Assembly: GCA_039794085.1 (NCBI GenBank)
Contig: JBDIWC010000072.1
Coordinates: 1 to 16,159 of the forward strand
Source of the DNA: Gemmatimonadales bacterium
GTDB taxonomy: Bacteria > Gemmatimonadota > Gemmatimonadetes > Gemmatimonadales > GWC2-71-9
Reading direction: 5' to 3'
DNA length: 16,159 nucleotides
A model generated the notes under the pieces. The model was not told where the DNA came from. It worked only from the letters and a program-made list of their open reading frames with translations, and did no database searches. A program made the position numbers and the translations under genes. Within the stretch, counting starts at the first letter, position 1. Each line of letters starts with the position of its first letter. Positions 2,689 through 16,159 of this stretch are shown here, piece after piece.

Positions 2689-2762
2689 AACCACGAAATA
2701 CACGAAAACGCACGAAAGGCCCCCCCCGCCCCCGTTCGTGTCCTTTCGTGCCTTTCGCGGTT
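2689..2762. repeat. Palindromic REP-like element with 3x CACGAAA and 3x TTCGTG/TTCGCG arms
   Basis: Left arm AACCACGAAATACACGAAAACGCACGAAA (2689-2717) is an imperfect inverted repeat of TTCGTGTCCTTTCGTGCCTTTCGCGGTT (2735-2762), around a C-rich loop. Confidence 0.8.
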
Positions 2763-2786
2763 GATCCGTTCCCCTGCGTGACCTAC

Positions 2787-2815
2787 TTGCTACAATCCGC
2801 TACATTTGCTACATT
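2787..2815 (+). promoter_or_regulatory. Putative sigma70 promoter/operator of vapBC (leaderless)
   Basis: TTGCTA(2787)-N17-TACATT(2810) lies 7 nt before ATG 2823. It is overlapped by GCTACA direct repeats at 2789, 2799 and 2808. Confidence 0.65.
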
Positions 2816-2822
2816 ACTTCGC

Positions 2823-3071
2823 ATGGACAGGACCATCACCCAGCGCGAGCTGCGCAACGACTCCGGGGCGGTTCTCCGGGAGGTTCAGGCGGGGGAGACC
2901 CTCATCGTGACCCGGAACGGTGTCCCCGTGGCCGAGTTGAGGCCGATCCAACCGAACCGGTTCGTTCCCCGCGCGGTGATCGCCGAGGCGGCGGGCCGGG
3001 CGGGCCGCATCGATTACTGCCGGTTCCGCGCCGACCTCGAAGCCGTGGTGGACCAGACCCTCGATGGCTGA
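2823..3071 (+). CDS. vapB: Phd/YefM-family antitoxin (VapB)
   Basis: 82 aa from ATG 2823. ITQRELRNDSGAVLREVQAGETLIVTRNGVPVAEL is a classic Phd/YefM N-terminus. The gene overlaps the downstream PIN gene. Confidence 0.9.
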   Translation: MDRTITQRELRNDSGAVLREVQAGETLIVTRNGVPVAELRPIQPNRFVPRAVIAEAAGRAGRIDYCRFRADLEAVVDQTLDG

Positions 3072-3465
3072 GCCATCCCGGGGGCTGCTCGATACGTCCG
3101 TTGTGATCGACCACGACCTCCTCGATCCGGCGCTGCTTCCGGACGAGTCGGCCATCTCGGCGGTGACTCTGGCCGAACTCGCGGCGGGTCCCCATGCCAC
3201 CCGGGATGCGGAGGAACGTGCCCGGCGTCAGGACCGGCTGCAGTGGGCCGCGGCCACCTGGCACCCCTTGCCTTTTGATGCCGAGTCGGCGCGCCTGTAT
3301 GGCCGATTGTTCGCGGCCTGCCGGGCGGCCGGGCAGTCGAGCCGGACGCGACTGGCCGATCTGCTCATCGCCTCTACCGCGGCAGCCCATGGCCTCCCCC
3401 TCTACACCCGGAACCCTTCGGATTTCTCGGCGTTCTCGAAGCTGGTCACGGTCGTCGCGGTGTAA
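3064..3465 (+). CDS. vapC: PIN-domain toxin VapC
   Basis: 133 aa with LLDTSVVID, ISAVTLAEL, ADLLIASTA and LYTRNPSDF PIN motifs. Confidence 0.92.
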   Translation: MAEPSRGLLDTSVVIDHDLLDPALLPDESAISAVTLAELAAGPHATRDAEERARRQDRLQWAAATWHPLPFDAESARLYGRLFAACRAAGQSSRTRLADLLIASTAAAHGLPLYTRNPSDFSAFSKLVTVVAV

Positions 3466-7731: not shown

Positions 7732-9335
7732 GATGCACCTGCCCTCTTCCGGGGAAGCGGCCGACAGACACCGTAGCCCCGGTACCGTCCCGCCCCCAGC
7801 ACGACCGGCCCGGCGACCGGACGGCCGAAATCGAGATAGACATGCATGTGCCGCCGTTCCGAGCCGTCCTTGCGCCGGAGCCGAGGGACCTCCCGGGCCG
7901 GCGGGGCCCCGCGGTGCCACGACACCCCGTCGAGGTCCACGTGGACCGGATCGGGTAGGCCGATCCGGGTACAGGCTGCGAGGACCATCCGGGCCACCTC
8001 CTCGCGATAGGCCGTGCGATCCTTTGCCTTGGGGTGCGTGTCGAAGACGACCGGGGTCACCGACGCCCAGACCTCCGCCCCGCGGGACGAGGCCGTCCAG
8101 ACTTCCGGCCGCAGGGTCGCCGCCGGGATCTCCCCAAGTTCAGGAATCAGGTTCCAGACCCCGAGCCGTCCGAGCGTGAGCTTATCCGTGCGTGCCAGGA
8201 GAGTGATGACAGTGCGGTATTCGGCCTCCCGCTCTGGCCAGTACTCTTCGCGCGGGAGCGCGACCCCGATCCCTTTCAGGCTGCCATCGGCGTGCTCGTG
8301 TCCCACGAAACCGAGCGGCAGGAAGGCAGCGTGAGGCCGCTCGCTCGGCGTCCCGTCGCGGTGATGCCCCGACAGGACTTCCGGCAGTCGCTCGAGCCCG
8401 AGATCCTGATCCACTCTGGCCTGCAGAGCCTTGCGCAGAACGTCCACCACGTACGGAGCCGTGACCAATTCGAGGCCGCGGAACCTGGCATCCTTCGGTT
8501 CGAGGCGCAGCACCTGGATGGCGGGGTCGAACACGGAGGCGGGGAGAGGTCCGGTCACCGGACGCCTCCGCGCATAGCTCTGCCAGAGGCCGAGGACCGG
8601 GCGCCTGCTTTCGGGCGGGGAGGCGGAGCGGCGCCAGGACACTCCGAAGGTCCGCTCGTACTCCTCCTTGAGTGCCTTCTGTTCCCGGCCCTTTGCCGCG
8701 GTGATCGCATCGCTGAGCTGTGCGAATCGTTCGACGGCTTCCCCATTGTACTCCTCGCGGAGATACTCGAGCGTCCCGGCGCCGGTGATGCGAAGACCGG
8801 CCCCCTCCTCGCCGGCCTCGGGATCCGGCGTCCAGGCCTGCAGATCGGGAGCCACCCGGTCCGCCACCCACATCTGCACCAGGGAGGACGAGTGCCCGAT
8901 GCGGGTCACCTTGGCACACAGAGCCTGAAGAGCGGCCCGGTGGCCGGCGGCCGGTTCCACATCCCACTCGAGAAAGGCCTGCTCGTCGTGCAGCCGGACC
9001 CGGGGGAAGGCACGTCCAGCACGGTCCCGTGTGAAATCCGGGGCGGACTGCAGGGGTGCCTTCGAGGGGCCCGCGGAATCGTTCACGGGGACGTAATGGG
9101 TCACCACCGTGCGGGGATCGGTGGCAGGGACATGCAGAAGAGGCGCCGACAGCGTTTCGAGCCATTCGAGTGCGTCGCGCTCCACCGGATCCTCGCCCGT
9201 TTCGAAAAACGCGGCGGCAAGCGCCATGAACACCCGGCCGGGATGCGGCGGCCACTCGGCCGACTCCCGGTCGGCGGGATCGGTGGCCACGGCGTATCCG
9301 GTCAGGTATCGAATACCCAGGACGAGAGAGGACAT
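7728..9335 (-). CDS. csb2: Csb2 (Cas5/Cas6 fusion RAMP)
   Basis: About 535 aa with N-terminal EWPPHPGRVFMAL and VTRIGHSSSLV, then WASVTPVV and the C-terminal Gly-rich loop GPVVLGAGRYRGYGVC. Start is ATG 9335 (or GTG 9338) after GAGGAGG. Confidence 0.93.
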   Translation of the reverse strand: MSSLVLGIRYLTGYAVATDPADRESAEWPPHPGRVFMALAAAFFETGEDPVERDALEWLETLSAPLLHVPATDPRTVVTHYVPVNDSAGPSKAPLQSAPDFTRDRAGRAFPRVRLHDEQAFLEWDVEPAAGHRAALQALCAKVTRIGHSSSLVQMWVADRVAPDLQAWTPDPEAGEEGAGLRITGAGTLEYLREEYNGEAVERFAQLSDAITAAKGREQKALKEEYERTFGVSWRRSASPPESRRPVLGLWQSYARRRPVTGPLPASVFDPAIQVLRLEPKDARFRGLELVTAPYVVDVLRKALQARVDQDLGLERLPEVLSGHHRDGTPSERPHAAFLPLGFVGHEHADGSLKGIGVALPREEYWPEREAEYRTVITLLARTDKLTLGRLGVWNLIPELGEIPAATLRPEVWTASSRGAEVWASVTPVVFDTHPKAKDRTAYREEVARMVLAACTRIGLPDPVHVDLDGVSWHRGAPPAREVPRLRRKDGSERRHMHVYLDFGRPVAGPVVLGAGRYRGYGVCRPLPRKRAGAS

Positions 9336-10600
9336 CACGCCTCCTCCTCACCGCCTTGGGAAACAGTGAGTTCCTGGCTCTTCCGAACGAGCTGAACCAT
9401 CGGCTCCGATGCCGAGAGAGAGACGGTCCCGGCCCAGGTCAGGCCGTGCTTCTGCGCGGCAGCCACGGCCTGCCTGAGCAGGGCGACGGCCTGATCGTGA
9501 TTCAGCGTGTACCGGGTGGCCGGACTCCCCGGAACATCCAGCAGCTCCCACTCCGCGGGTGCCTCGGGCCAGAGGAGGCACCGCGAACGGAGATCGAGGC
9601 CCTTGTCCATGGCGAGCGTCGAGGCGCAGAGCCCGAGAGCGGCAAGCACTGTGCGGGCGGCGGCATCCCGTTCTCCCGTACGCGAGCCCGTCGCGTCCGG
9701 GAAGCGGAAACGGCGCAGCCCGGGCAGCGAGAGAACGATAGACTGCTCGGCGTGGGAGATGGTAACACCACCGGCCAGGGGGCGGCCGGTCTCGCGGTCC
9801 ACCGCGGAGAGACTCGGTGTGATGTTCCCGTGATTCACCTGCGAGGGCTTTCCGTCCTTGATTTTCTCCGGGGCCTTTCCCTTCGTTGCGGCACTCGATT
9901 CGTCGAGGGTCCACGGGAGTGGTCCCTTGCCCTCGGCGGTACGATACACCGGTCCGGCCTTGAGCTGGATGCCGAGCGGGTCAATGCGGCTGCTGGTCCT
10001 GGTCCCGAAGCTCGCGTTCACGCCGACGATTTCGGACACGAGCACCCGCGCGAACTTGGCGCCCAAGCCGCCGCGGGGGCCCGTCGAGTCCCAGAGGCCG
10101 AAGACCAGGGCGGTCGGGCAGTACTCGTAGAGGGCGGTGGCGTGCTGCAGGGTGCAGCGCGAGAGGCGCAGCCCGATCTCGCTCTGGGCGAACGGGACGC
10201 CATCGAGGAGGCTGTCGCGGAGAATGGCATCGGCCGAGCGGTGGGGAGCCTGGAGGCTGGTGACGCGGCCCACAGGCTGGAGGAGCTGATCATCGGGAAA
10301 GCGGACTTCGAGCAGGGGGAGCGGGATCTCGCCGGCGTCCACGGCATCCTGGAGAGCCTCCTCCATCCGGTTGGCGCTGGACTGCACTGCGTCCAGGAGG
10401 ACGCAGGGGACCACCTGCTCCTGGCCGCTGGCGTCCCGGACCCGGCGTTCCTCCACGGCGTACACGGCTCCGGCGTATGTTGGGGGAAAGACCTTGTCGC
10501 CGGGACCGCCGGCGGGATGGAGGGTGCGCCTGCAGCGGAACGCGGCCGCAGTACCTGACACGGCCCGCTGGAGGGTTTCGAGGGAGAGCGGTTCGGCCAT
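9335..10600 (-). CDS. cas7: Csb1 / Cas7g backbone subunit
   Basis: 421 aa from ATG 10600 with an AAGGAG SD. Motifs KVFPPTYAG, LLDAVQSSANRMEEAL, APHRSADAILRD, PTALVFGLWDS and DLRSRCLL are typical of Csb1. Confidence 0.95.
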   Translation of the reverse strand: MAEPLSLETLQRAVSGTAAAFRCRRTLHPAGGPGDKVFPPTYAGAVYAVEERRVRDASGQEQVVPCVLLDAVQSSANRMEEALQDAVDAGEIPLPLLEVRFPDDQLLQPVGRVTSLQAPHRSADAILRDSLLDGVPFAQSEIGLRLSRCTLQHATALYEYCPTALVFGLWDSTGPRGGLGAKFARVLVSEIVGVNASFGTRTSSRIDPLGIQLKAGPVYRTAEGKGPLPWTLDESSAATKGKAPEKIKDGKPSQVNHGNITPSLSAVDRETGRPLAGGVTISHAEQSIVLSLPGLRRFRFPDATGSRTGERDAAARTVLAALGLCASTLAMDKGLDLRSRCLLWPEAPAEWELLDVPGSPATRYTLNHDQAVALLRQAVAAAQKHGLTWAGTVSLSASEPMVQLVRKSQELTVSQGGEEEA

Positions 10601-10653: not shown

Positions 10654-10738
10654 GGGCGCGGTCAGCGGGAGCCCCAAGGCCATTGAGACGGCTTCGGCCC
10701 AGGAAAACTCCGGAGCGCCGCCAGACTCCGTAGCAAGA

Positions 10739-10820
10739 GGATGGCGCACGGAAGATGTAGACTGTGGAGAGGGCGACCCCCCAGTACTCCAACGAGCTTC
10801 AATGGGGCCGTGCGCAATCC
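10739..10820 (-). ncRNA. Putative crRNA-like RNA: two half-repeats flanking a 39-nt spacer-like segment
   Basis: 10796-10809 GCTTCAATGGGGCC is identical to 14 nt of the array repeat, in the same orientation. 10750-10756 GGAAGAT resembles the other repeat end GGAAAT. 10739-10751 and 10808-10820 form a 13-bp inverted repeat with 1 mismatch. Confidence 0.6.
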
Positions 10821-10969
10821 AGCCGTCATGAGGGAGTGTCCCGCCTTCTTAGCTGTTTTGGAGCATCGGAACGTGGCCCGGAGCGCTGCTGGTGGATCGC
10901 CGGCCTCACGCTCCCAAGGTAGGCCCTACCGCGCCAACCCTGAGCACGGCACCTGGCCACCCTGATAAC

Positions 10970-11003
10970 CTCTCTCTTCTCACTCCTCTCCCCTCACTCC
11001 TCC
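10970..11003. repeat. CT-rich heptamer tract; 24-bp exact direct repeat with 12899-12922
   Basis: TCACTCCTCTCCCCTCACTCCTCC occurs at 10980-11003 and 12899-12922. Confidence 0.85.
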
Positions 11004-12241: not shown

Positions 12242-12357
12242 GCTCGCTCCACGGTGGGCAGGTTTCCGGTCGCCTGCTCCGGCAGATCCCACGGGGACCC
12301 GCCGAGTGCAATTCGATTCAACGTGGCGGGTCGGGTTGCGATGGTCAAGTGCGAAGA

Positions 12358-12442
12358 GAAGTTTGAAGTTCGAAGTTTGAAGGAGGAAAACGAGGCCATT
12401 GGCCTGCGGCTCGGGTTGTCTCCGGAGAGAAGCTCGAAGTTC
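12358..12442. repeat. GAAGTTY heptamer tracts
   Basis: GAAGTTT GAAGTTC GAAGTTT GAAGGAG (12358-12385) and GAAGCTC GAAGTTC (12429-12442). Confidence 0.7.
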
Positions 12443-12459
12443 GAGAAAGAGCCCAAGAC

Positions 12460-12848: not shown

Positions 12849-12922
12849 GAGAAGAGAGGGAAGAGGAGTGAGAAGTGAGATCGATCGTCTCTCTCTCTTC
12901 ACTCCTCTCCCCTCACTCCTCC
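12849..12922. repeat. Imperfect palindrome built from GA/CT heptamers
   Basis: Left arm GAGAAGAGAGGGAAGAGGAGTGAGAAGTGAGA, loop TCGATCG, right arm TCTCTCTCTCTTCACTCCTCTCCCCTCACTCCTCC. Confidence 0.85.
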
Positions 12923-14437: not shown

Positions 14438-14618
14438 TGGGAGGAGCCTTGGGCAATGGCCGACTCCAGGCGCCGGCCAGTTCCTCCATCTCCTCCAGGG
14501 ACTCGATCACGCGGGTCAGAGACTCGGCAGCCCAGCGACGGAGCTGCTCCCGGCGCACACCCTCGAATGTGGTGCCGCTCCAATCCACGCCCGCCAGGTT
14601 TTCCGGGAGATGGTTCAC
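14400..14618 (-). CDS. Small protein coupled to the nucleotidyltransferase (putative TA-like partner)
   Basis: 72 aa. The GTG overlaps the upstream stop, and DWSGTTFEGVRREQLRRWAAESLTRVIESLEEMEEL looks helical. The C-terminal tail is encoded by the heptamer tract. Confidence 0.65.
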   Translation of the reverse strand: MNHLPENLAGVDWSGTTFEGVRREQLRRWAAESLTRVIESLEEMEELAGAWSRPLPKAPPTGCWTQDTGHRT

Positions 14619-15115
14619 GATTCCTCCATCAACATGCGCAGGTGGTAAATGTCCGTGACATCCTGAGGCCGGTTGGCCTCCTCCTTCATCCGTATCAACG
14701 CTGGAATCCGCACCACGCGTACCACCCCCGCATCCCGCAACTCCATGTTCACGGCCGCGTCGTACTCCTCCTGGAAGGGGAACGGCTCGCTGACGAAGAC
14801 ATCAAGATTGGTTTCGCGGTGCTGGTCGCTCCAGAACTGCAGAACCTGCATGCCCTTCTGCTCGACCAGCGCCTGTCGCAGGTCCCGGTCGGCAAACTGA
14901 TCCACCGTGACCGGAACCCGCGGCCGGTATCCCACCGAGGCCAGGGCCTCGAAGGCCGCACGCACGTTGGCGGGATCCAGCCCGATCACCAGGTCGAGAT
15001 CGGCCGTGAAGCGGCGGTACCCGTGGGCATTGACGGCGACCCCCCCCACGACGAGGAATCGCACCCCCGCCTCATCGAGAGCACGAATGACCACCTGCAC
15101 GCTTCGGAGCTTCAT
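14615..15115 (-). CDS. Pol-beta-superfamily nucleotidyltransferase (minimal/AbiEii-like)
   Basis: FLVVGGVAVNAHGYRRFTADLDL (GG...DxD motif) and C-terminal KEEANRPQDVTDI. Start is ATG 15115 with GGAG upstream (alternative GTG 15124). Confidence 0.85.
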   Translation of the reverse strand: MKLRSVQVVIRALDEAGVRFLVVGGVAVNAHGYRRFTADLDLVIGLDPANVRAAFEALASVGYRPRVPVTVDQFADRDLRQALVEQKGMQVLQFWSDQHRETNLDVFVSEPFPFQEEYDAAVNMELRDAGVVRVVRIPALIRMKEEANRPQDVTDIYHLRMLMEES

Positions 15116-15226
15116 CCGCGCCACTCCGTGGTGAGAGCGCCCCGACTCGGTTCATCAGCTTGGTCAGTCATCGTGAAATCATCGTGCCATGGCCCGAATT
15201 TGGCAAACGAGTATCTGAAGTAATCT

Positions 15227-15297
15227 GAAGTTCGAAGTTCGAAGTTCGAAGGGCGAAGGTCGCAGCCCCGTTCACTGTTCATTGTTCACTGTTCATT
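15227..15297. repeat. Two adjacent heptamer tracts (GAAGTTC-like x5; GTTCAYT x4)
   Basis: 15227-15261 has GAAGTTC x3, GAAGGGC, GAAGGTC. 15270-15297 reads GTTCACT GTTCATT GTTCACT GTTCATT. Confidence 0.85.
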
Positions 15298-15686
15298 GAT
15301 ACGACCTCGAAGCCCATCGCCCGCGCCACACCCGCCTGCCGCACGTCGTACGTGGCAAGGCGCACCGCGAGTCCCCGGGTCCGCAGAAATACCATTGACG
15401 CGAGGTGAAGGGCGTCGAGAGTTCGCACCGGGAGCGGGAAGGGCTCCGTGGCCCGGGCCAGCACCGGCGGCACCAGTTCCACCAGCGCCAGCCGGGAGAG
15501 CCACGCGCGCACCGCATCGCCGTGCGTTCCTGCGACCCCCCGTGCGTGAATCCGGGTCCAGCACTCGTACACCAGGAGACGGCTCGCAATGAGGGGCTCC
15601 GTCTCCGCCTCCCAGAATGCCGCAGCAGGCTTCCGGTCCTCGGCCAGAAGCTCGGCCAGGAGGACGGAGGTGTCGAGGTAGATCAC
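15279..15686 (-). CDS. vapC: PIN-domain toxin VapC
   Basis: 135 aa with MIYLDTSVLL, VRTLDALHLAS and LATYDVRQ PIN motifs. Confidence 0.92.
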   Translation of the reverse strand: MIYLDTSVLLAELLAEDRKPAAAFWEAETEPLIASRLLVYECWTRIHARGVAGTHGDAVRAWLSRLALVELVPPVLARATEPFPLPVRTLDALHLASMVFLRTRGLAVRLATYDVRQAGVARAMGFEVVSMNSEQ

Positions 15687-15982
15687 CGGGCGTCCCGATC
15701 GTTCCGTAGTTCCTCGATCAGATCGGCGAGGGGGACCACGGGACGGGTCTCAGGCACCGCAAGGGCCTGCCTGGGAAGGGTCACGACACCCTCTCCCACT
15801 AACGCGGCAAGAGGATCGGGGAGAGTCCCGGTCCTGGACCCCGTCACCCCCAAGGCCTCGATTCCGCGACGCAGAATCTCCGACCGGGACACACCCAGCT
15901 CCCGAGCCAGCCGATCGAGCTCGGCGCGCTCGCCTCCCGTGAGGTAGGTCTGAATGGGCTCTCGAACCCGGTCTTCCACCAT
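15683..15982 (-). CDS. vapB: RHH/CopG-family antitoxin (VapB)
   Basis: PIQTYLTGGERAELDRLARELGVSRSEILRRGIEAL fits the RHH pattern. There is a 4-nt overlap with vapC, and TGcTATCAT-6nt-ATG lies upstream. Confidence 0.85.
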   Translation of the reverse strand: MVEDRVREPIQTYLTGGERAELDRLARELGVSRSEILRRGIEALGVTGSRTGTLPDPLAALVGEGVVTLPRQALAVPETRPVVPLADLIEELRNDRDAR

Positions 15983-16037
15983 GGTATTATGATAGCAGTT
16001 TCTAAATTTGGCAATATGATAGGAAGTTCGAGGTTCG

Positions 16038-16159
16038 GGTTCTTCTCCAATTTAGGTGCAGGATCGGCCCGGGAACGCCTGCTTGACCCTGGGGGCGAAG
16101 TAGTCCGGATGGTGGAATCCGTCCGCTTTGCGCGTGATCGCCTGGATGCGGGTGTTCAC
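16038..16159 (-). mobile_element. Right end of an ISL3-family element with (probably decayed) transposase C-terminus
   Basis: Minus frame 16052-16159 reads VNTRIQAITRKADGFHHPDYFAPRVKQAFPGRSCT*, resembling the ISL3 C-terminal NNKIKVIKRxAYGFxxxxYFxLKIxQAF pattern. It is followed by a GGTTCTTC terminus at 16038 like ISL3 inverted-repeat ends. Confidence 0.65.

Follow-up and report, generated by a model that had tools for sequence, protein, structure and literature searches.

A split CRISPR repeat enclosing a spacer upstream of cas7 as a probable member of a type I-G guide-RNA gene family

What is the short element upstream of cas7 in the type I-G locus of a Gemmatimonadales bacterium, in which a single CRISPR repeat seems to be divided in two around one spacer? 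The window, the whole stretch of 16,159 nt that was analysed, is the entire contig C72 of the source genome G000 (4.16 Mb, 94.7% complete; G, L and C denote genomes, loci and contigs), and its minus strand encodes a type I-G system with cas7g, csb2, cas3g, an NF049934 gene, cas4g/1g, cas2 and an array (Table 1). The array repeat, ATTTCCACGCTCATTGAAGCGTGGCCCCATTGAAGC when read from 445 down to 1, is present in six full copies and one truncated by the contig end, and forms a hairpin with a 7-bp stem, after which come CCCC and the handle ATTGAAGC. As the initial annotation had described, a repeat split around a 39-nt spacer, with an exact 14-nt match to the array, is found on the minus strand, where the 3' half of a repeat is followed by the spacer and then by the 5' half; the handle ends 195 nt before cas7. 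The last 14 nt of the array repeat occur exactly seven times in the genome, six times in the array and once in the split unit, against a chance expectation of 0.0002 in the window and 0.056 in the genome. Contigs from runs X1 and X2, which may represent the source sample, cover the site without differences.

Table 1. Features of the split unit and of the surrounding type I-G locus (window coordinates)
Positions	Strand	Feature	Basis
10808..10820	-	Left arm GGATTGCGCACGG, 3' strand of the stem extended to 13 nt, no upstream partner	Pairing probabilities
10804..10807	-	CCCC linker, same as in the array repeat; predicted Csb2 cut 10804/10803	Cut inferred from the accessible text of 10.1101/2022.08.08.503147
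10796..10803	-	8-nt 5' handle ATTGAAGC, same as that of the array	Sequence identity
10757..10795	-	39-nt spacer-like guide, no PAM-flanked target found	Target searches
10752..10756	-	ATCTT, resembling the unpaired 5' end of the repeat (ATTT)	Family consensus NTTT
10739..10751	-	Right arm CCGTGCGCCATCC, 5' strand of the stem, 12/13 complementary to the left arm	Folding
10701..10730	-	Terminator-like hairpin and T-rich tail directly past the unit	Consensus match only
10849..10879	+	Possible remnant of a target (TTA at 10849-10851, partial match at 10858-10879)	Not significant
9335..10600	-	cas7g (csb1), first gene of the effector operon	TIGR02570
7728..9338	-	csb2 (Cas5-Cas6 fusion), predicted processing enzyme	TIGR02165
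4639..7734	-	cas3g	TIGR02621
3686..4642	-	Type I-G associated gene at the cas8g position	NF049934
625..2628	-	cas4g/cas1g fusion and cas2	NF049935, TIGR01573
1..445	-	CRISPR array, 36-nt repeat, running off the contig end	Repeat scan

The outer 13-mers are complementary at 12 of 13 positions across the spacer, and their stem is unlike that of the array, both of which agree with the initial annotation. Folding of the minus strand, which it had proposed, gives the long-range stem in both the MFE and the centroid structure, and the seven nucleotides at the stem base pair downstream with a probability of 0.97-1.00 and upstream with a probability of 0.00. Of 100000 random genome windows, 72 offer the left arm an equally good partner, and the right arm could also pair weakly with a nearby segment (-6.1 kcal/mol). 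The stem duplex has an energy of -20.7 kcal/mol in the unit versus -10.9 kcal/mol in its own array. The folding energy is unremarkable for 161 nt (z 0.37) and reaches z -2.3 for the 82-nt unit; since such whole-region z-scores are weak, the case stands on geometry and recurrence instead of energy. A terminator scan past the unit gave two overlapping sites versus 0.4 expected, by consensus match only, and a promoter scan gave no sigma-70 site. Between the unit and cas7, neither a toxin gene nor an ORF of at least 80 aa was found besides 5' extensions or overlaps of cas7. An Rfam search gave nothing close to the gathering score, and a search of 101 related genomes for DNA resembling the region matched only a dispersed repeat upstream.

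Processing of type I-G repeats has been described in two preprints, which, in their accessible text, conflict on the cut position and on the need for a stem-loop. According to one, Csb2 cuts 4 nt 3' of the 7-bp stem to leave an 8-nt handle, contacting the hairpin and not the handle, and the PAM is TTN with each sixth guide base flipped out (10.1101/2022.08.08.503147); according to the other, Csb2 cuts 5 nt from the 5' end of the repeat and the stem-loop is dispensable (10.1101/2022.08.19.504415). The 3' end of an ordinary crRNA consists of the spacer, ATTT, stem strand one, the loop, stem strand two and CCCC. That of the split unit would consist of the spacer, ATCTT and the right arm, paired with the left arm and CCCC, so that the loop alone would be missing. 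In the proposed mechanism, the arms of the transcript would pair to form the stem that is normally presented to Csb2 as a hairpin, flanked by NTTT and, at the opposite side, by CCCC and the handle. A single cut 4 nt off the stem base would release the 8-nt handle with the spacer, while the 3' end of the guide would remain base-paired to the severed left arm. This two-piece duplex would substitute for the 3' hairpin gripped by Csb2, and a crRNA-shaped guide would thus be obtained from one repeat's worth of sequence. Such processing by one Csb2 cut, which the initial annotation had considered possible on the ground that the two halves rebuild the stem-base geometry, appears likely, being backed by recurrence and covariation at unrelated loci.

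A cas7 search provided 80 genome and 80 metagenome loci, to which further loci were added by family, pattern and profile searches, and 165 and then 261 host loci were scanned for split units. Besides the window, they were found at five other cas loci, with covarying stems, for which the initial annotation had proposed to look in related I-G loci; the six independent cas-linked places are the window, L096/L097 (85 nt before a cas7 79% identical to that of the window), L014 (13-bp stem), L126 (about 14 bp with a bulge, divergent from cas7), L043 (14 bp, directly behind the final effector gene) and L492 (7 bp, ahead of a cas3-first I-G operon, within the window's own family). One more unit, with a 12-bp stem, lies on a small contig with no cas gene in the 2.5 kb read (L514). 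The stem sequence differs in almost every split unit, and it is unlike the local array stem in G000, L096, L014's genome, L126 and L514's genome; the arm of L043 starts like the array stem of its own genome. Rows dropped in the host scans were arrays (L044, L023, L078, L168, L170), cases with a full second repeat (L130, L132, L137, L112) and weak rows of 6-8 bp. The unpublished genome G774 underlies none of the conclusions.

Ordinary two-repeat mini-arrays or forms with an armless first repeat occupy the same position at L001, L080, L099, L112, L130, L137, L144, L155 and L165, so that split and unsplit forms alternate among relatives. The first repeat is armless and the second full at L001 and L112, and L099 (81% over 189 aa) carries a two-repeat array, yet retains the right-arm segment of L096 downstream. 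No split unit was found in four plasmid I-G loci of named species or in 30 further cas7 loci of another phylum (1.5-9 kb flanks in both sets). A covariance-model search of 151 genomes gave no new unit among the matches listed, in which arrays predominated. Since every array junction shows the split geometry, the unit likely originated from an array step that was trimmed in its loops and later lengthened. A two-repeat array remnant overlaps the end of the last effector gene in a Methylomagnum plasmid I-G locus (L625:16160-16270).

Most of the family members found are viral, which the initial annotation had not foreseen. Three pattern scans of IMG/VR gave at least 121, at least 120 and 49 loci, partly overlapping; the patterns imposed the handle and the first three pairs and left pairs 4-12 free. 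Among the matches listed, 58 distinct viral sites were scored as split and 48 were kept, array edges (L230, L263, L271, L310, L436), likely chance cases (L362, L416, L370) and duplicates (L425, L403) being dropped. The strictest pattern, with 49 viral loci, gave 23 split units versus 20 ordinary hairpins. A downstream partner arm was present at 57 of 198 hairpin-less handle sites among the matches listed, versus a mean of 2.7 and a maximum of 6 in 50 shuffles, in which arms and downstream segments were exchanged between sites. Among the 48 viral units kept from the matches listed, 45 have a handle-to-arm gap of 39-46 nt, 39 distinct 8-nt arms occur, 20 have a T-rich tail directly past the right arm, and none has a second handle. 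The stems of these units are 9-30 bp long versus 7-8 bp in arrays, and their median duplex energy is -28.0 kcal/mol versus -7.5 to -16.4 kcal/mol in 22 array repeats; stems beyond array length would fit a need to keep the two pieces joined after the cut.

No cas7 was found in viral contigs, tblastn of the window's Cas proteins gave no match in 1.03 Mb from 28 viral-unit records, and the 71 flanking ORFs include no Cas family and several portal, capsid and head-tail families. An Acb2/Tad1-type anti-defence gene adjoins one viral split unit (L330:1189-1449). Some phages carry two units, which are in tandem 100 nt apart in L437, on opposite strands 1.5 kb apart in L454, and 23 kb apart with stems of 25-30 bp in G758 (L427 and L439). 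Viral I-G mini-arrays with two repeats also occur as a related group, in which the flanks are shared and the spacers differ (L191, L194, L212, L227, L231, L232, L234, L244, L245, L248).

For a covariation test, 40 units were aligned, comprising 33 of the 48 viral units (gaps 40-42), six host-side units and the window. Paired cells amount to 94.8% versus 59.2% in shuffled alignments, none of 500 shuffles being as good; 165 double changes are observed versus 53 in shuffles, and slid registers are 40-51% paired. Changes on both sides occur at 10 of 12 pairs in this alignment, the rows of which were picked for their stems, making the test partly circular. From the recurrence and the compensatory changes in the stems, the split-repeat (circularly permuted) guide-RNA family is very probably real and selected. 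The element in the window is probably a member of this selected type I-G family, that is, a crRNA gene matured by a single cut.

For targets at host loci, a TTN PAM was required, each sixth base was left free, and 18 positions were scored against 1000 shuffles. Four of the six cas-linked split units have a PAM-flanked target 63-192 nt upstream (18/18 in L014; 16/18 in L096, L126 and L492), with 0-1 of 1000 shuffles as good, and TTN-flanked upstream targets are also found for eight of the nine unsplit mini-arrays. These host targets fix the family's strand and handle register. The guide of a unit at a cas locus would direct Cascade to a partial PAM-flanked site closely upstream and would thereby repress transcription in a CreR-like manner. 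Among I-G mini-arrays near cas7, significant TTN-flanked self targets are seen at L001, L080, L099, L112, L130, L137, L144 and L165, and CreR-like regulation looks common in type I-G. By eye, a promoter (TTGACA-17 nt-TAAGAT) lies under the target of the mini-array at L099:28-56, with the PAM inside the -10 box.

The window spacer, in its turn, has no TTN target (10/18, with 991 of 1000 shuffles as good), nor do L043 (11/18) and L514. The absence of a seed-plus-PAM target inside the window had already been noted in the initial annotation, and the search of genome and phage sequences that it had proposed found no TTN-flanked target. The best local match pairs spacer positions 4-25 with plus-strand 10858-10879, three bases off the TTA register; it is not counted as a target since 88 of 1000 shuffles score as well. 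Elsewhere in the genome, C7:47154 matches the seed at 12/12 and was rejected for its PAM, CTT instead of TTN, and C6:4946 (TTG, 16/18) was rejected for mismatches in the seed and lies apparently in coding sequence; by a rough estimate, both scores are about chance for 8 Mb. In viral collections, seven matches to a 15-base seed pattern were found, none of which extends, there was no match to a 19-mer, and the best phage blastn hit has E=2. The idea of a regulator, raised in the initial annotation, is supported by the relatives, with PAM-flanked upstream targets in four of six cas-linked units, and not by the window copy itself.

The position of the window copy nevertheless speaks for regulation. 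It lies before cas7 as in L001, L096 and L099, which have the three closest relatives of its cas7 among the loci examined; their guides match the opposite strand at sites 68-129 nt upstream. TTA within CTAAGA in the window is placed, by eye, like the target of L099. Given family membership, the chance is about even that the window copy is a cas-promoter regulator in origin, the match having drifted or the target lying outside the assembly; standing at the regulator position, it is most likely such a regulator. A real family whose window copy does not regulate cas genes, being instead a guide, perhaps of phage origin, directed at some unsampled phage or plasmid, or a target-less decoy titrating Csb2 and Cascade, a role also raised in the initial annotation for Cascade, is rather unlikely. 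The spacer without a PAM-flanked self target would agree with such a role, as would the prevalence of viral members without a nearby self target and the target-less L043 unit behind the last cas gene. On the other side are the shared position and the TTA placement just described, and the absence of a protospacer in viral collections; cas regulation is preferred to a decoy or anti-phage guide because of position alone.

What the viral guides aim at is suggested by two related phages. The L451 spacer from G737 matches 28/36 in G736 versus 24/36 in its own genome, and the L181 spacer from G736 matches 25/36 in G737 versus 22/36 in its own; both matches lie behind TTN in the unit-adjacent stretch of a shared gene, the products of which are 76% identical. 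This is the one reciprocal pair found. Partial TTN matches in the own genome, about 100-500 nt off, occur in 8 of 31 viral units when the score is required to exceed the best of 12 shuffles, a small null, by 2 or more, and the other 23 show no own-genome match clearly above that null. On this thin evidence, viral guides aimed at a relative's allele of the neighbouring gene, or sometimes at local regulation, would fit the sequences, and phages would then employ the split-unit design against related phages. The L427 spacer gave four seed matches in viral contigs, none of which extends, and viral spacers gave no convincing promoter match in cas7-upstream regions. On balance, it is rather probable that I-G hosts and phages share a widespread, undescribed class of permuted crRNA genes, in which a single Csb2 cut would give a two-piece guide joined by an intermolecular duplex, with hosts repressing their cas genes and phages attacking close competitors through the host's Cascade. 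The split design may also exist in other type I and type III systems.

It is improbable that the stem is selected for something other than cutting, the guide's 5' end being set by the start of transcription or by a cleavage that needs no stem, and the role of the stem being only to retain Csb2, end transcription or protect the RNA. The accessible text of 10.1101/2022.08.19.504415, with cleavage independent of a stem-loop, would be compatible with this, and so would the targets of L001 and L112, present despite an unstable first-repeat stem, and the T-rich tails in 20 of the 48 viral units among the matches listed. Against it, the stem base stands exactly 4 nt before the handle, which is the Csb2 geometry; this spacing was imposed by the patterns for viral units, but L014, L043, L126 and L096 show it in cas7 neighbourhoods under looser patterns. 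Very improbable, finally, is a functionless relic of an old array step or of a two-repeat mini-array that lost its outer halves, in which the stem would be a leftover of the pairing that the 3' half of any repeat makes with the 5' half of its successor. Model R1, derived from split units, matches ordinary array junctions as well, L001 and L112 look like intermediates, the arm of L043 begins like its genome's array stem and the window guide has no target, but unit stems reach 30 bp, well past the 7-8 bp of arrays, have a sequence other than that of the local array stem in G000, L096, L014's genome, L126 and G042, and retain compensatory changes, four cas-linked units retain significant PAM-flanked targets, and no array with the CCGTGCGC stem, a finding that in the initial annotation would have counted against the proposal, exists in G000 (94.7% complete), the same-genus genome G001 carrying the window's ordinary repeat. 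Such a route may explain the origin of the family and not its persistence.

Among known systems, the closest likeness is with the CreR, CreA and crlRNA mini-arrays (10.1101/2023.03.10.532045; PMC10120712), which, in the accessible parts of these sources, are intergenic beside an effector operon and have one spacer and a repeat-derived handle, and to which the relatives' guides with a partial PAM-flanked match near the cas promoter also correspond. Their upstream repeat is highly array-like and the downstream one degraded, each with a hairpin where shown, whereas the split unit is hairpin-less on both sides and one stem encloses the guide. The window unit shares with CreR and crlRNA the intergenic place beside the effector operon and the array-matching handle with a 39-nt spacer, and it lacks a nearly complete upstream repeat with its own hairpin, the left arm having no upstream partner. 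I-U (I-G) regulatory mini-arrays were noted by hand in Figure S7 of 10.1101/2023.03.10.532045, and mini-arrays are reported at 4% of I-G loci in the available text of PMC10120712. As in CreTA, the split unit at L014 (L014:8819-9656) has toxin-like surroundings, a DUF6364 gene and a PIN_3 gene flanking it and its 18/18 target some 900 nt ahead of cas7, an arrangement that suggests a CRISPR-repressed protein toxin; the window differs from CreTA in that no toxin gene was found between its unit and cas7.

Viral CRISPR mini-arrays, as described in the accessible text of PMC11656645, likewise have one or two spacers, no cas genes, and spacers matching related viruses (as with G736/G737). They carry full repeats identical to those of the host; unlike them, split units keep 12-14 conserved bases and a private stem without a direct repeat, and none of the 48 viral units among the matches listed has a second handle, where two or three full host-identical repeats characterize viral mini-arrays. 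With SRUs or Racrs (PMC10651486) and Cracrs (10.1101/2024.10.29.618823), as far as these sources are accessible, split units share a virus-borne location, one repeat's worth of sequence and processing by a host enzyme, the latter being predicted for split units. SRUs, however, are intact repeats found through similarity to array repeats, whereas split units hold a guide of fixed length inside the stem. The window unit shares 14 nt with the array repeat and differs in its stem, and it lies in a cas locus instead of a virus or plasmid; its 48 relatives among the matches listed are viral. The term I-G does not occur in the accessible text of PMC10651486 and 10.1101/2024.10.29.618823.

The initial annotation knew of no account of this topology, and none in which a split or permuted repeat surrounds a spacer was found in the literature; figures, bioRxiv supplements and most subscription papers lay outside the search, so that a prior mention is possible. 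The architecture is new as far as can be judged, and its functions are already known, I-G regulatory mini-arrays having been noted before. Since split units have no direct repeat and a private stem, they would escape CRISPR and SRU finders, and surveys of mini-arrays and SRUs, which rely on whole-repeat similarity, would miss them; regulatory and phage-encoded guides may therefore be undercounted. If the reading is true, a guide can be encoded in a new way, by one repeat, split, with one cut. The split unit would also offer a sharp test of whether Csb2 recognizes the stem base or the loop, on which the two preprints disagree, and multiplexed type I-G tools would benefit from a guide cassette free of repeats.

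Some further features of the window may be recorded. Toxin-antitoxin-like genes lie in and beside the cas locus (2748-3465, plus strand; 14615-15982, minus strand): a Phd/VapC pair sits between the effector and adaptation genes, and the set also includes a PIN gene with an antitoxin-like partner and a DUF2204/AbiEii-like nucleotidyltransferase, similar to one located ahead of the L492 unit. A 34-nt purine/pyrimidine-rich dispersed repeat is found at 10970-11003 and 12849-12922, forms an inverted pair at 12849-12921, and has many further copies in the genome. Short GAAGTTC-type tandem repeats are located in intergenic regions at 12352-12444, 15221-15271 and 16017-16038.
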